From Armatimonadota bacterium (GTDB lineage: Bacteria > Armatimonadota > HRBIN16): a stretch of DNA of 64,000 nucleotides. How positions within the stretch are numbered: position 1 is the stretch's first letter; each line of letters starts with the position of its first letter. Positions 11,238 to 59,410 of the stretch are shown piece by piece. Below the pieces are notes generated by a model, which ran no database searches, was not told the DNA's origin, and saw nothing but the letters and a program-made list of their open reading frames with translations. Location: NCBI GenBank assembly GCA_963677485.1, contig OY781964.1, positions 1,088,001-1,152,000 on the forward strand, written 5' to 3'. The translations under genes and the position numbers were made by a program.

Positions 11238-12599
11238 CTCCGTGTCAGTCGTAGTACTAGTTCAGTTATACCCGAAATGTGCCAGCAGGCGTTAAGATGC
11301 CCATAAATGGCTGGGGATATCCACAGATGAGGCAGTTTGTCGTAACCACGAATGGACACGAACGGACACGAATGGGAAGGATCCATCCACAGATTACACA
11401 GGTTACGCAGATTAGGTGAGGAGTTGCTGCCAATGTCCGGGGCGGTTTTCCCCAACCGCGCCGGTCTTTCTCCAAGGCAGACAGCAATCGGCACGAAGGG
11501 AAAGATCTCACGCCGAGATCACGGAGGGGGTCATGACCACACAGGTTTGATGGAGTGCCGACACCAGTGGTACTCCCACCGCGACATCAATGTCTCGGCT
11601 ATTGGCAAGAAAGACTGCTGAAGCAGCCTGAAGTCGTCGTACGGCCTCCGGGCACCCACGGAGTGGGTAAGATTCTTATAGCCAGGGGTGAGCGAAGCGA
11701 TACCCCTGGAAATGGCCGCGGTACCCCTACCCCGAAGTGGGTCGTCCAATGACGATGTGGCTGATCACCTCCGATACAAGCCACCAGCCACGCTACGACG
11801 GGTTCCATCGCCCCGTAAACGGGGCTCCATCACCCATCGCTGATCAGTTTGCAGCCCGCAAGCGGGCGCAGCGGAAGGTCATCGCAACCCAATTGCCTTA
11901 GTCCGGGGCGGTTTTCCCTAACCGCGCCGGTCTTTCTCCAAGGTAGACAGCAATCGGCATGAAGGGAACGATCTCACGCGGAGATCACGGAGGGGTCATG
12001 ACCACGTCGGTTTGGTGGAGCGCCTACTACACCAGCGGTCCTTCCGCCGCGACATCAATGTTTCGGCTATTGACAAATAAGACTGCTGAAGCAGCCTGAA
12101 GTCGTGGCGCGGCCTCCGGGCACCCACGGAGTGGGTATGATTCCTTATAGCCAGGGGTGAGCGAAGCGATACCCCTGGAAAAGGCCGCGGAAAACGTAAC
12201 CCCGAAGTGGGTCGTCCGCTGACGCATCGGCAGATCACCTCCGATACAAGCCACTAGCCCTGCTACGACGGGTTCCATCGCCCCGTGAACGGGCTCCGTC
12301 ACCCATCGCTGATCAGTTTGCAGCCCGCAAGCGGGCGCAGCGGAAGGCCATCGCAACCCAATTGCCTTAGTCCGGGGCGGTTTTCCCTAACCGCGCCGGT
12401 CTTTCTCCAGGGCAGACAGCGATCGGCACGAAGGGAACGATCTCACGCCGAGATCACGGAGGGGTCATGACCGCGCAGGATTGATGGAGTGCCTACACCA
12501 GCAGCCCTCCCACCGCGACATCAATGTCTCGGCTATTGAAAAACAAGCATCCGCCCGTGCCTACCCGGCAGCCCATACTGTAACTGATGCGTTTCAGGT

Positions 12600-12790
12600 A
12601 CATTTATAGCACACATCTCTTGACAGCATCCCCGGACAGTCTTTGGTGCATAATAGCCCGTTAACAAGCATGGGGCGGAAAGGTGGCTGATCAGCCAGAT
12701 GGTGTAGTGCTCGGTGGCGAACCCGAGTGAACCCGATTACAAGATTTCACGCATATGCCTTTCCGGCTCGAGATGTGTTCATATTTCTAA
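12600..12790 (+). ncRNA. candidate IS110 bridge RNA in the non-coding left end
   Basis: Stem cggaaagg (12676-83)/cctttccg (12758-65); hairpins tggctgatcagcca and ctcgg..ccgag; short matches to donor (TTACAAG) and target (CAGTCTT). Boundaries approximate. Confidence 0.5.
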
Positions 12791-12806
12791 GTGTGAGGAT
12801 CAAACA

Positions 12807-14246
12807 ATGGCACAGCACTCTCGAAAAGACAACTCGCCTGTAGAGGCCAAGCCTCCTTCCCACTCCCTGTTGTCGCGCCGTGTACCGGCCCCTCGGTTCG
12901 TAGCTCATTATCCAAAAGAGGATCTCCAGGTGATCCACCGCAATGCAGCGGGCATTGACCTAGCAGGGCGCGGCGCTCACTTCATCGCTCTGGAGATCAG
13001 TGAAACAGAGCTTGAGGTCATAGAGGTGGGGGGAATGACCCCGGATCTGACGGTGTGGGTTGAGTATCTGAAATCGCATGCCGTGACTACGGTGGCGATG
13101 GAGGCGACCGGTGTCTACTGGATTCCGGTGTACGATGCTCTGGAGAAGGCCGGCATCGAAGTATTTCTGGTGAACCCAAGCCATGCTAAGAATGTTCCTG
13201 GACGCCCGAAAGATGACAAGCTAGACGCACGTTGGTTACAGAAGCTGCATAAATTCGGCTTGCTTTCAGCCTCGTTTCGCCCGAGCGAAGACATTCGCCC
13301 GTTGCTAGAATTCTGGCACCAACGAAGTAAACAAGTGGAATTCTGCGGTGATGCGGTCCGTCGCCAGCAGAGGGCTCTGGATATGATGAATCTGCGCCCG
13401 CACCAGGTAATAAGCGACCTGGATGGAGTGACTGGTCAGCGTATCGTGGACGCGATCGTGAATGGAGAGCGTGATCCAGTCAAACTGGCGTCATATCGCG
13501 ATCATCGATGTCACTGCACCGATGAAGAGCTTTATGCGGCTTTGACAGGGTATTACCAACCCCACCTGGTGTTTGCTCTCAAGATAGCCCGAAACGACCA
13601 TCTTTTCCATCAGGCTCAAATCGCTCAGATCGATGCTCAGATATTACAGCATCTTACTGCGATCATGCCTGAGAATGATGATCAGATCACGGAAGCTGTT
13701 AGCTTGGAAACCCACCCAGTCAACCAGGGAAAACATCCACCGCCATTTAATGCTGGTGCGATGGTGACACTGTTTCTGGGTGTAGACCCAACCCAGCTAC
13801 CAGGAATCGGCGGTCTCACAGCTCTGGGCCTTCTGTCTATGTTAGGCTACGACATGGATAAGTGGAAAACGGATCGACATTTCGGGTCATACCTTGGTCT
13901 TGCGCCGGTTCAGAAGATCAGCGGAGGTAAACGGCTATCGAGCCGTACCCGGCCTGGCATACATCCTGCGGCCGTTCTGTTTCTGCAGTCGGCCGTTGCG
14001 ACTATACGTTCTGATAATGCTTACGGTGCTTTCTAAAGACGCTTAGCGGCTCGCATCAGTAAGCCTAAAGCTCTCTATGCCACCGCATACAAAATCGCCA
14101 GGATGTACTACCATCTGCTAAAAGACGGCCAGCAATACGTTGATCTTGGGGTTCAGGATTACGAAGCGAGGTATCAGTCTCATCAAGTTGCAGCCATGAG
14201 AAAGAGGGCCAAGAAGTTAGGTTTCGATCTGATCGAAGCCGTCTGA
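12807..14246 (+). pseudogene. IS110 DEDD/Tnp recombinase with premature TAA at 14034-14036
   Basis: AGIDLA, AMEATGVYW, KDDKLDARWL and ISGG motifs. Past the stop the frame continues RRLAARISKPKALYATAYKIARMYYHLLK...KKLGFDLIEAV to TGA at 14246. Confidence 0.9.
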
Positions 14247-15396
14247 CCATTTGATTTTCGATGCTTTCAAGCACAATTTTATCGGAGAAGTGCATAGGCA
14301 GCTCCGACAGGCATTCTATACCCAATAGGTGGTATGATCGCCGTATAAAGGTTACTTACAAGACTGCTGAAGCAGCCTGAAGTCGTCGCGCGGCCTCCGG
14401 GCACCCACGGAGTGGGTAAGATTCCTTATAGCCAGGGGTGAGCGTAGCGATACCCCTGGTAAAGGCCGCGGTACCCTACCCCCGGACGGGGGTCGTCCGA
14501 TGACGATGTGGCTGATCACCTCCGATACAAGCCACCAGCCCCGCTACGACGGGTTCCATCGCCCCGTGAACGGGGCTCCATCACCCATCGCTGATCAGTT
14601 TGCAGCCCGCAAGCGGGCGCAGCGGAAGGCCACCGCAGCCCAAATGCCGAAGTCCGGGGCGGTTTTCCCTAACCGCGCCGGTCTTTCTCCAGGGCAGACG
14701 GCGATCGGCACGAAGGGAAAGATCTCACGCGGAGACGCGGAGATCACGGAGGGGTCATGACCGCGCAGGTTTGATGGAGTGCCTACACCAGCGGTCCTCC
14801 CGCCGCGACATAAATGTCTCGGCTATTGACAAAAAAGACTGCTGAAGCAGCCTGAAGTCGTCGTACGGCCTCCGGGCACCCACGGAGTGGGTAAGATTCC
14901 TTATAGCCAGGGGTGAGCGAAGCGATACCCCTGGAAAAGGCCGCGGTACCCTACCCCCGGACGGGGGTCGTCCGCTGACGATGTGGTTGATCACCTCCGA
15001 TACAAGCCACCAGCCCCGCTACGACGGGTTCCATCGCCCCGTGAACGGGGCTCCATCACCCATCGCTGATCAGTTTGCAGCCCGCAAGCGGGCGCAGCGG
15101 AAGGCCACCGTAGCTCAAATGCCACAGTCCGGGGCGGTTTTCCCTAACCGCGCCGGTCTTTCTCCAAGGCAGACGGCAATCGGCACGAAAGGAAGACAGT
15201 CCACAGATCGCACATATTGTCTGAACCACGAATATACACGAATGGACACGAATGGCTATAAACACAACGCAAAGTCGCAAAGAAGCAAGGACGCAAAGGT
15301 TGGCGGAGGCGATTCACCATCCGTGTCATCCGTGGTTCAGACGATAACGCAGCATGGACACGAACACCGTATCACAACATAATGCCCCATCCGCCG

Positions 15397-38035: not shown

Positions 38036-38179
38036 TGATATATACCTCCGGTAATGCTGAATCGTCGGTTCGTGGCTCCCATGCCACGCGCATGTGAACA
38101 TGGCTATGACCCATAAATGTTGCAAGGCCAGTAGGTCACCGATTCCGCGACATAAATGTCTCGGCCATTGAACACCAAG

Positions 38180-38324
38180 CACCTGCACGTGCTGAAACGG
38201 CAGCCCATACTGTAACTGATACGGTCGTAGGGGCCACCCTTATGGTGGCCCTAAACGTTGCTTATTCGATTGTTTTCGATTAGGGCGCCCACAAGAGGCG
38301 CCCCTACGACCAGCTACTTACGAG
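38180..38324 (+). mobile_element. 145-bp non-autonomous IS110-derived element carrying a GTAG-type REP doublet
   Basis: Left end shares cggcagcccatactgtaactgat with the IS110 left end at the same offset. Right end tacttacgAG matches IS tacttacaAG. Inserted at the same position of the same repeat module. Confidence 0.85.
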
Positions 38325-38642
38325 CCTGCTGAAGCAGGCTACAGGGCTTCGTCCTGTAAGCACGGTGGATGCAGACGGCTTTAGCCGGCTTTCGGATAAT
38401 AAGCCGTGTCCTTCAGGGCGCGGCGGTGAGTTTTTTAATTTGATGGGTAATAGACTGGGCCGTTCGGCTCGCGACCCAATCGGTCTTCTATCAACCGTCT
38501 GCTGGGCTTTGACTCTCGTATTAGTATTCGGGACCAGACCGTTTTATTCCTGCAACACGCCCATCGGCAAGCTGAATTCGCCACCGGTTCCGTATGGCGG
38601 AGTGGCAGTTCCTAAAAGAAGCGTTACAATATAAGATGGTAG

Positions 38643-59207: not shown

Positions 59208-59410
59208 CCGCGACATAAATGTCTCGGCTGCTGATCAACAAGCCCGGTAAACCGGGTTGCGGAGCTCCTTGCCGATAAAGATAACGTTAATAAAGACTGC
59301 TTCAGCAGTCTTGGTGTTCAGTAGCCGAGACATTTATGTCGCGGAATCGGTGACCTACTGGCCACGCGATATTTATGGGTAATAAACTGACATAAATGTC
59401 TCGGAATCAG
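59208..59410. repeat. inverted pair of REP-like modules containing empty IS110 target sites
   Basis: ccgcgacataaatgtctcgg forward at 59208 and inverted at about 59325-59344. Reverse complement of 59310-59363 is 52/54 identical to 38126-38179. Confidence 0.9.

Follow-up and report, generated by a model that had tools for sequence, protein, structure and literature searches.

A 145-bp element and its IS110-family partner

The window, i.e. the whole 64,000-nt stretch of DNA that was analysed, contains a gene-less 145-bp element lodged between a repeat module and a hairpin, and both ends of this element match those of an IS110-family insertion sequence (IS) of lineage IS-A found in the same window (Table 1). 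The initial annotation had described a MITE-like element without terminal inverted repeats, bounded by IS110-family termini, and this description stands; its span of 38126-38340 encloses the element, but also takes in flanking DNA, 54 nt on the left and 16 nt on the right, while its sequence statements (on the 23-mer, the ends, the hairpin, the doublet and the 52/54 empty site at 59310-59363) all held on re-reading.

Table 1. Features of the 145-bp element, of its target and of the partner IS (positions in the window).
Feature	Position	Strand	Sequence or remark	Basis
IS110-family IS, lineage IS-A, 1815 bp	12548..14362	+	defective copy, carries the same ends	
IS left end, 41 nt	12548..12588	+		
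Candidate guide (bridge/seek-type) RNA	12611..12778	+		long closing stem with compensatory changes
Candidate target-binding loop	12630..12675	+	stem CCCCG/UGGGG	
Transposase gene	12807..14246	+	in-frame TAA at 14034-14036 (409/479 codons open)	Pfam
IS right end	14351..14362	+	gttacttacaag, then target hairpin actgctgaagcag	
Left half of target: repeat module	38126..38179	+	ending ..ctcggccattgaacaccAAG	
Class A non-autonomous element, 145 bp	38180..38324	+	left end, inverted doublet cargo, right end	genome listing +1126180
Element left end (LE), 41 nt	38180..38220	+	cacctgcacgtgctgaaa+cggcagcccatactgtaactgat; positions 19-41 equal the IS 23-mer exactly	
First arm of GTAGGGGC.. inverted doublet (cargo)	38227..38253	+	GTAGGGGCC..CCCTA	
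Second arm of doublet	38281..38307	+	..GCCCCTAC; TAGGGCG..CCCCTAC	
Element right end (RE)	38310..38324	+	ccagctacttacgag	comparison with IS and RE logo over 68 copies
Right half of target: hairpin	38325..38339	+	cctgctgaagcaggc	
Paralogous unoccupied target module and hairpin	59295..59363	-	..gaacaccaag then actgctgaagcagtc	

[quoted passage not shown] At the other side the element terminates in ..CTACTTACGAG, to which the IS terminus corresponds: positions 38313-38324 read gctacttacgag as against the IS right end given in Table 1, with 2 of 12 bases differing and the stretch GTTACTTACAAG in common. Even when up to 3 mismatches were tolerated, the 23-mer occurred at two places only in the window (12566 and 38198), and none of 100 shuffles matched it. 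LE and RE show no sequence relationship to each other, and what the target has in common with the element is the core alone; neither the terminal inverted repeats nor the target-site duplication by which classical MITEs are recognised were found in the 145-bp element or in the family described below. The same holds for the IS, whose ends (CATCCGCC.. and ..TTACAAG) do not form inverted repeats and whose insertion is site-specific without a real target duplication.

An unoccupied counterpart of the target is provided by the paralogous module on the minus strand, where 52 of 54 positions (59363-59310) match the 54-nt left flank of the element and are followed directly by the hairpin sequence. About 136 such modules exist in the genome, the empty ones running on into ACTGCTGAAGCAG, CCTGCTGAAGCAG or CCCGCTAAACCGG. 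Loose ends of isolate contigs at 38179/38180 that continue with ACTGCTGAAGCAG were rejected as evidence on this copy, since they belong to empty paralogous modules elsewhere. Joints in metagenomes across 38165-38445 were likewise set aside, being supported by repeat sequence and short sides.

The transposase of the IS comprises an N-terminal, RuvC-like DEDD_Tnp_IS110 domain (PF01548, 2.2e-17) and a C-terminal Transposase_20 domain (PF02371, 2.3e-12). Three IS-A copies are present in the genome, each within repeat clusters: the IS in the window is identical to the copy at C1:139387 (minus strand) and differs at 61 nt from that at C1:3874341, which encodes an intact 479-aa transposase scoring 192.5 bits (cut-off 140) against NF033542, 'IS110 family RNA-guided transposase'. 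The two defective copies, identical over 1815 bp and with the nonsense codon in common, would most simply be explained if a defective IS had been copied by the enzyme of another copy. All three IS-A copies in this genome (G000) are preceded by the left flank ..TTGAnnnnCAAG, as are two of the three examined in the congeneric genome G001, where the third lies after the RE of another element. A scan for sigma-70 promoters gave no promoter-like site in the IS region. In a scan of genome contigs, outside which nearer genomes possibly lie, the best relatives of the transposase were 34-44% identical (34-36% for those in named Pseudomonas records), and in a distant blastn search of a plasmid collection the best 10 of 18 records covered 6-10% of the IS at ~70-75% identity, 4 of the 18 falling in the 80-90% band.

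A family of mini-elements in the genus

Genome-wide, the 23-mer was found at 83 places with up to 4 mismatches, and a profile of the LE gave 126 matches at E<=1, of which 105 were near full length; 18 of these 105 are located at the target module of Table 1. With a complete unit defined as an LE with an RE-like 15-mer (>=11/15) within 340 bp, 68 of the 105 copies were complete, measuring 75-80 bp (3), 138-149 bp (28), 183-197 bp (2), 225-239 bp (10) or 276-300 bp (25). The further mini-elements that the initial annotation had proposed to look for thus exist, in many copies and at independent sites. The size classes of ~75, 145, 238 and 288 bp carry different cargo, amounting to at least four classes, and since these are mutually unrelated the LE and RE are the sole common parts; the RE follows the consensus (g)ACCAGTTACTTACAAG (logo, 68 copies). 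The idea that the 23-mer marks a minimal cis requirement is supported in part only: its middle varies (CCCATACTG versus CCCAGGCTG) and it is the whole 41-nt LE that is shared. By these comparisons, the mini-elements are IS110 termini (a 41-nt LE and an RE of ~12-17 nt ending in TTACAAG) around short non-coding cargo, which replaces the candidate guide-RNA region and the transposase gene.

The left flanks of the 68 copies, at sites unlinked to the IS, point to an AG core (A44 C39 A50 A67 G59). When left flank and RE were compared base by base, there was no correlation past the consensus, so that the length of the core is not derivable from this comparison. Searches with Rfam at gathering thresholds returned no family in the window, nor in two loci where elements of classes B, C and D lie. 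The cargo of class B gives a stable fold on either strand (z = -3.8 and -4.0) and is read for this reason as a DNA palindrome, not as an RNA gene.

Among the relatives, G001 has 46 matches and its own 205-211-bp subfamily and G002 has 2, while three genomes of other genera and the reversed-pattern controls gave none; by these counts, the family is large and genus-restricted. Orthologous empty sites, precise to the base, were found for four elements at unique sites: in G001 for three G000 elements, the 288-bp one at C1:3016573, the 144-bp one at 3027219 and the 146-bp one at 4298090, and in G000 for a 122-bp element of G001 (L093). Their limits coincide with LE position 1 and with the AAG of the RE, not with the doublet. 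The three G000 cases came from nine G000 elements compared with G001, the others being four intervals without LE but with other repeats and two that were not comparable; on the G001 side, 6 of 28 elements were inspected at base level. Differences in cargo at the same site also occur between species, and homologous recombination, rather than transposition, could be their source.

Class A copies at unrelated loci are 99.3% and 98.6% identical, which speaks for recent spread, and one such near-identical copy is absent from the sister species. The copy at 38180-38324, whose nearest family member is 84.8% identical, is an old and diverged one that may have lost its movability. It was present and unchanged in the isolate runs X1 and X2, and circle junctions, excision products or insertion polymorphism were not seen in the reads for any copy, the isolate contigs breaking in repeats; nor does it have an orthologous empty site in G001 or G002, whose intergenic DNA at this place is unrelated.

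A candidate guide RNA and its targets

The IS left non-coding region encodes a candidate guide RNA, the long closing stem of which (alignment columns 64-72/223-231) displays both-sided changes at pairs 64/231, 66/229 and 67/228; the minimum-energy fold of the IS non-coding region was no more stable than shuffles (z = +0.76). In the candidate target-binding loop, the 5' side cagtctt (12637-12643) is complementary to AAG|ACTG and the 3' side aacaag (12663-12668) equals the left target. Moreover, in four IS variants one or both loop segments change together with the flanking target: the loop CAGTCTT/AACAAG goes with the target AACAAG|ACTG, the loop AGCAAG of the intact copy with a left flank AGCAAG, the loop CGGTCTT/TCAACAAG of the G001 IS with TCAACAAG|ACCG, and the loop CCTCCT/AGATAG with AGATAG|GAGG in IS-B, a second IS lineage (71% nucleotide identity) with its own LE variant, an unchanged RE and a left flank ending in AGATAG. 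The predicted IS RNA has one mark of the bridge/seek RNAs, an internal loop whose sides would pair with opposite target strands around the core, and the RNA-guided IS110 partner postulated at the outset is supported by this co-variation. Because the loop-matched flanks sit outside LE and RE, the recombination site lies outside the shared ends, with the crossover point where LE and RE border on the flanks and both of these ends within the mobile unit.

Stretches of the predicted RNA that might pair with the donor are UUACAAG, which repeats the terminus of the RE, GGGCGGA, which complements LE +3..+9, and AUGCCUU/GUGCCUU, in an ambiguous geometry. Six G000 mini-elements have the IS-B variant of the LE, and their left flank ends in AGATAG in one case and AGACAG in two; a CAGCCC..CTGTAACTG block in the 41-nt left end is common to both IS lineages. 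On the right-hand side, ACTG follows at 1, ACCG at 4 and CCCG at 6 of the 68 sites. Most mini-element sites hence fit the left guide only, and the present IS guide RNAs leave most insertions unexplained as they stand.

Movement in trans, its alternatives and precedents

The mini-elements share their ends with the IS, form a family with exact boundaries given by empty sites, and coexist with an intact transposase gene and with an RNA loop that co-varies with its target. They are best read as non-autonomous IS110-end elements moved in trans by recombinase and guide RNA, a reading to which we assign a probability of about 0.77; we infer, as its parts, that circles form, that the enzyme acts in trans and that the system is active today. 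The DEDD recombinase of the intact IS copy (C1:3874341), loaded with guide RNA from the left non-coding region of the IS, would join the two element-flank junctions into a small circle, whose RE-LE joint would be the donor site; this joint would then recombine with an (A)ACAAG target, producing no duplication besides the shared core. Copies within the cognate target (module ..TTGAnnAACAAG|ACTG/ACCG hairpin) would be re-excisable and could act as sources, and those at ACAAG sites of looser fit would probably be dead ends.

It is possible, if rather unlikely, that the family is a fossil of past IS110-type transposition and that no copy, the one at 38180-38324 included, is mobile now. The divergence of this copy, the lack of polymorphism at its locus in the reads, the defects in two of three IS copies and the few sites that extant right-hand guides fit would all agree with such a history, whereas the one intact transposase gene and the 98.6-99.3% identical copies at different loci, one of them missing in the sister species, argue against it.

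We regard it as improbable that the repeats are REP/REPIN sequences which owe their spread to a Y1 transposase of the RAYT/IS200-like kind, or else to duplication with gene conversion, the likeness to IS ends being secondary. RAYT-associated REPs start with GTAG, as does the cargo doublet, three PF01797 (Y1) genes lie above cut-off in the genome, and the same-site cargo differences between species fit recombination. Against this, the 1.5 kb to either side of each Y1 gene contain no GTAGGGGC unit, and the sole Y1 gene with flanks examined (C1:376078) is bordered by a different inverted repeat, GGCACCCACGAAGTGGGTA... The ~238- and ~288-bp classes have the same LE and RE without the doublet, the precise empty sites coincide with LE and RE, and 44 of the 63 doublets in the genome directly adjoin an LE, most of the other 19 retaining end remnants. 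Of the proposal that one REP family had been moved into another, the inverted doublet cargo remains, but by these counts the doublet is not an independent REP family. Tentatively, and with less confidence than we place in movement in trans as such, the IS110 recombinase rather than a RAYT might be what spreads REP-like doublets and other intergenic repeats in this genus, the ~100 LE/RE shells being exchangeable cassettes; in this view, same-site cargo swaps and head-to-tail arrays suggest that circles may integrate at the junctions of resident elements and exit with a different partner. IS110 systems would then be able to fill the DNA between genes with REP-like repeats, which is normally ascribed to RAYTs.

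Very improbable is an older repeat shell, in which the 41-nt LE and the TTACAAG RE are target remnants and the IS merely inserted inside. Insertion of IS110-family elements into repeats is known (PMC12288879 and, for IS1111 in QMITE2, PMC10969869), and all three IS copies lie within repeat clusters; nevertheless, the IS loop segments co-vary with sequence outside LE and RE, each of the two IS lineages has its own LE variant, no cargo remnant is found between LE and IS body, and at empty sites LE and RE come and go with the unit. Finally, a single internal-deletion derivative of an IS already inserted at 38180-38324, to which the retained exact IS-type 23-mer might point, is refuted by the census, as the family is multi-copy at independent sites, the doublet cargo is missing from the IS, and four other members have orthologous empty sites.

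Movement in trans of IS110-end passengers has precedents. The report on MITEPpu9/ISPpu9 of Pseudomonas putida KT2440 (PMC12288879, NAR 2025) describes a natural gene-less element between two IS110-family boxes, 'A' (43 bp) on the left and 'B' on the right, with a crossover at AG, insertion into REP/BIME repeats and a palindrome after AG in left box and target. Registered as MITE-like, it has 8 copies with a single cargo (the ssr9 sRNA gene), usually beside the IS, and gives passenger-only (ssr9-only) circles that require the transposase (same source). Akin to MITEPpu9, the elements described here have IS left and right boxes flanking non-transposase cargo and copies unlinked to the IS at an AG-core crossover. 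Unlike it, they number ~100, with at least four unrelated cargo classes in which no RNA gene was recognised, numerous insertions at unique sites, and two subfamilies of the LE that correspond to the two IS lineages. Our literature search for natural IS110/IS1111-derived non-autonomous elements found PMC12288879 alone, and in a 2024 MITE review IS1111 appears solely as inserting into QMITE2.

Engineered counterparts, presented in 2024, are a mini-IS of ISEc21 (29-bp LE and 16-bp RE) that moves if transposase and seekRNA are provided in trans (PMC11187229) and, for IS621, a 22-bp donor that suffices with bridge RNA in trans (PMC11208160). The concept of IS110-end hitch-hikers is therefore not new, being preceded by MITEPpu9 with its circle evidence (2025) and by the engineered mini-IS (2024), and the 'undescribed system' of the initial annotation has to be given up. 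As in the engineered mini-IS and short donors (ISEc11, ISEc21, IS621), cargo lies between short IS ends, and recombinase and guide RNA are proposed to act in trans; in contrast to these laboratory constructs, the natural conserved left end is longer (41 nt), and with its CAGCCC..CTGTAACTG block it hints at a further cis site, unneeded or untried in constructs.

As in IS621/ISPpu10-type IS110 elements, the full IS enters a repeated palindromic module at one fixed position, and its target would be set by an RNA loop whose coding sequence precedes the recombinase gene, the long IS-A transposase (479 aa) being a difference. In the loop found here, the segment that complements the top strand comes first, 5' of the one that matches the bottom strand; by our reading of the published accounts, this order is reported for IS1111-family seekRNAs and the opposite one for ISEc21 and IS621. 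With classical bacterial MITEs (IS630-, IS5- or IS200/605-derived, Correia, RUP) the mini-elements have in common that they are short, gene-less, multi-copy and intergenic, with the enzyme in trans; they differ in their asymmetric ends without terminal inverted repeats, in the absence of a target-site duplication past the shared core, and in an enzyme that is a DEDD recombinase with an RNA guide, not a DDE or HUH transposase. The likeness to REPIN/RAYT systems is confined to a GC-rich palindromic unit that starts with GTAG and forms inverted doublets in tens of copies, since the doublets are embedded between IS110 ends and none lies near a Y1 gene.

Bridge/seek-RNA recombinases are in development as genome-writing tools, and their effects on native genomes are little known. 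This genome offers a natural data set of ~100 donor-bearing mini-elements with several cargo types and two enzyme lineages with matched end variants, in which guide-target co-variation is visible inside one genus, insertions obeying half of the guide bear on off-target rules, and the conserved 41-nt left end (versus 22-29 bp in constructs) gives testable hints on cis requirements. On the more tentative reading given above, in which the IS110 recombinase spreads such repeats, the mini-elements at left-half-guide (ACAAG) sites would exemplify half-guide targeting in nature and point to a cis site of 41 nt that extends past the RNA-paired donor bases. We note that IS492 duplicates CTTGT, the complement of ACAAG.

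The insert and the ends that it shares with an IS110-family IS

The insert and its partner IS, an IS110-family element of the lineage that we call IS-A, have a left end of 41 nt (LE) and a right end (RE, ending TTACAAG) in common. Their first 41 nt align without gaps and are identical over positions 19-41, a 23-mer found in the window at these two places only (at ≤3 mismatches; 0/100 shuffles matched), and the last 12 nt of the insert, gctacttacgag, agree with the IS terminus, gttacttacaag, at 10/12 positions. To its left lies a repeat module with the terminus ..gaacaccaag and to its right the hairpin cctgctgaagcaggc; module and hairpin also occur uninterrupted on the minus strand at 59363-59295, where 52/54 bases of the left flank are identical. 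The cargo is a 27-nt GTAGGGGC.. unit present as an inverted doublet. The initial annotation was correct in its description of the sequence: LE, RE, module, hairpin, empty copy and doublet were all re-found.

Features, loop words and flanks (^, position of the element)
Feature	Position in window	Structure	5' loop word	3' loop word	Flanks
145-bp insert	38180-38324	LE, doublet cargo, RE			
Partner IS	12548-14362	1815 bp, without inverted ends			
Allele of window IS (source genome)			CAGTCTT	AACAAG	AACAAG^ACTG
Intact allele (source genome)				AGCAAG	AGCAAG (left)
Sister-species (G001) allele			CGGTCTT	TCAACAAG	TCAACAAG^ACCG at one copy; ^CCCG at two others
IS-B (second lineage)			CCTCCT	AGATAG	AGATAG^GAGG

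The genome-wide search for the 23-mer that had been proposed returned 83 places at ≤4 mismatches in the source genome (G000). A profile of the 41-nt LE gave 126 matches there at E≤1, and an RE-like 15-mer (≥11/15 match, ≤340 bp from the LE) accompanied 68 of the 105 near-full-length matches, which disposes of the reading of the insert as a single copy left by internal deletion of an IS. The remaining 37 include three IS copies, the rest presumably being truncated or interrupted. The complete elements measure 75-80 bp (n = 3), 138-149 bp (n = 28), 183-197 bp (n = 2), 225-239 bp (n = 10) and 276-300 bp (n = 25); the cargoes of these classes are unrelated to each other, and beyond the 41-nt LE and approximately GTTACTTACAAG the classes and the IS have nothing in common. 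LE matches numbered 46 in G001, the sister species of the same genus (5.3 Mb), 2 in G002, a 3.8-Mb congener, and 0 in three genomes that represent two further genera within the same family, with 0 in reversed-pattern controls. G001 has a subfamily of its own (205-211 bp), which includes a head-to-tail triple of 205-207-bp elements (L098-L100, G001 C1:2103575-2104009); each RE adjoins the next LE, so that the chromosome holds ready-made RE-LE donor joints.

Empty sites and a probable source of transposase

For four elements at unique sites the sister species has an empty site that is exact to the base: the 122-bp G001 element L093, empty in G000 (..gatatggtaaag^aaccaac..), and the G000 elements at C1:3016573 (288 bp), 3027219 (144 bp) and 4298090 (146 bp), empty in G001. 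The missing block ran in all four from LE position 1 through the final G of the RE. Nine G000 elements were compared with G001; three gave these precise empties, four sites held other repeats but without an LE, and two were not comparable, namely the window insert (its intergenic DNA is unrelated in G001 and G002) and C1:1577167 (flanks not collinear). Conversely, 28 G001 loci were blasted to G000 and six inspected at base level: one was precisely empty, at one the element was missing together with the rest of a 511-bp composite, at two it was missing without base-precise boundaries, and at two the same site in G000 was filled by a different cargo class. Class A copies, the ~145-bp mini-elements with doublet cargo, are up to 99.3% (C1:1577167 vs 3299443) and 98.6% (3027219) identical at unrelated loci, the latter copy being one of those absent from G001. 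At two orthologous sites the cargo differs between G000 and G001: a 237-bp nested-palindrome element at G000 C1:960661-960897 has flanks identical to those of L109, a 146-bp element of the doublet class, and C1:1558810 and L115 carry the same unusual LE variant with different cargo. Such same-site differences could reflect repeated insertion, exchange via tandem intermediates or homologous recombination.

In the partner IS a left non-coding region of 259 nt is followed by a gene of 479 codons, whose product has DEDD_Tnp_IS110 and Transposase_20 domains. Among the three copies in G000 (5.22 Mb, one contig), that in the window has an in-frame TAA at 14034-14036 and is identical over 1815/1815 bp, nonsense codon included, to the copy at C1:137573-139387 (-). 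The third copy, at C1:3874341, has 61 differences from these and an uninterrupted reading frame of 479 codons; its protein scores 192.5 bits against NCBIfam NF033542, 'IS110 family RNA-guided transposase'. Two identical defective copies are most simply explained if the enzyme came from another copy, the defective IS having apparently been copied; that the truncated transposase is inactive is our assumption. The intact transposase (P0001, C1:3874600-3876039; 479 aa, with ~47 residues ahead of the DEDD domain) exceeds the family range of 315-455 aa given in PMC11187229.

A candidate guide RNA and the target sites

When their left regions are aligned, the two alleles of G000, that of G001 (93% protein identity) and a second lineage of G001, IS-B (71% nucleotide identity), keep a common frame in which certain words vary. 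RNAalifold predicted an outer stem (columns 64-72/223-231, three both-sided changes) and a loop that is closed by CCCCG/UGGGG and has a small hairpin between its 5' and 3' sides. Over core and right flank the top strand is complementary to the 5' side; over left flank and core its sequence is that of the 3' side. Set beside the flanks at which the IS copies stand, the loop words show four concerted changes across the IS variants. The DNA that the loop words match lies beyond LE and RE, which places the crossover at the outer edge of these ends; the same match removes the alternative of an IS simply lodged in an older, pre-existing shell. IS-B combines an LE variant of its own, CACCGCTCTTGAGTTCAAG..CAGCCCGTACTGTAACTG, with an unchanged RE; this variant occurs in six G000 mini-elements, with left flanks that end in AGATAG (one), AGACAG (two) or otherwise (three). 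Candidates for a putative donor-binding loop are UUACAAG, GGGCGGA and A/GUGCCUU. In the candidate target-binding loop (window 12630-12675; L118, L165) the top-strand-complementary segment stands 5' of the bottom-strand-matching one, despite a non-coding region upstream of the gene; on our reading of PMC11187229 and PMC11208160, this is the order of IS1111-family seekRNAs and the opposite of that in ISEc21 and IS621.

Among the 68 complete copies the left-flank base counts are A44 C39 A50 A67 G59, and the first base on the right is C in 40. Eighteen of the 105 LE copies lie in the ..ATGTCTCGGC..TTGAnnnnCAAG module (~136 copies in the genome), 15 occupy one and the same position (..GGAACAAG^ACCGG, an exact fit to the G001-type guide words) inside the nested-palindrome module, and at most 8 come after another element's RE, the remainder occupying varied sites. 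Right-hand guide words are seldom satisfied (of 68: ACTG 1, ACCG 4, CCCG 6). Mini-elements may thus be less choosy than IS copies, or they may have been placed by guide variants since lost. Because excision requires flanks that match the guide, according to PMC11187229 and PMC13626964, copies in cognate modules may act as sources and those elsewhere may be dead ends.

The site of the window insert, ACACCAAG^CCTG, is one base off the guide words AACAAG^ACTG on each side and hence near-cognate. The insert differs from the IS at 3/10 of the first LE bases and 2/12 RE bases, its nearest family relative is only 84.8% identical, and in isolate read runs it is present and unchanged. The most fitting description is that of an old member of the family, itself of unproven mobility.

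Described relatives and cargo classes

The insert had been put forward as the best candidate in the window for an undescribed system, a claim overtaken by three precedents. The nearest is MITEPpu9 of ISPpu9, in which a 43-bp A box and a B box are common to the IS and a passenger with an sRNA gene, the crossover is AG, the targets are REPs, and passenger-only circles depend on transposase (PMC12288879); in addition, a mini-IS with 29-bp and 16-bp ends is mobile given transposase and seekRNA in trans (PMC11187229), and a 22-bp donor suffices for IS621 with bridge RNA in trans (PMC11208160). The kind of element is therefore already known. New in the G000 family are its size, the presence of several cargo classes, the carriage of doublets between the ends, two matched IS/end lineages, loose targeting and conservation of the left end over 41 nt. 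We found no further natural example in the literature covered, to which subscription journals mostly do not belong.

The cargo is the GTAGGGGC doublet in one class and a nested-palindrome module or a 230-nt palindrome in others. Doublets directly adjoin an LE in 44/63 cases, and most of the other 19 retain an RE, a truncated LE or an IS-B-type LE; the three Y1-transposase genes have no doublet within 1.5 kb. The initial annotation had one REP family moving into another; the doublet is not a free-standing REP family. The Y1 (IS200/RAYT-like) gene whose flanks were examined (L162:1277-2349; G000 C1:375854-376926) is bordered by a different inverted repeat, GGCACCCACGAAGTGGGTA..TATAGCCACGGGTGAGCG, which resembles a repeat immediately to the right of the window IS (~14390-14460). 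The palindrome of the 288-bp class (L121:1074-1361; G000 C1:3016573-3016860) spans ~230 nt; it matched no Rfam family, and whichever strand is taken its fold is much better than that of shuffled sequences (z = -3.8, -4.0). The nested-palindrome module of ~180 bp (GCCTATGTCCGGGGCGGTCTG .. CAGACCGCCCCGGACATAGC; for example, G000 C1:3386056-3386240) yields 300-400 BLAST segments genome-wide.
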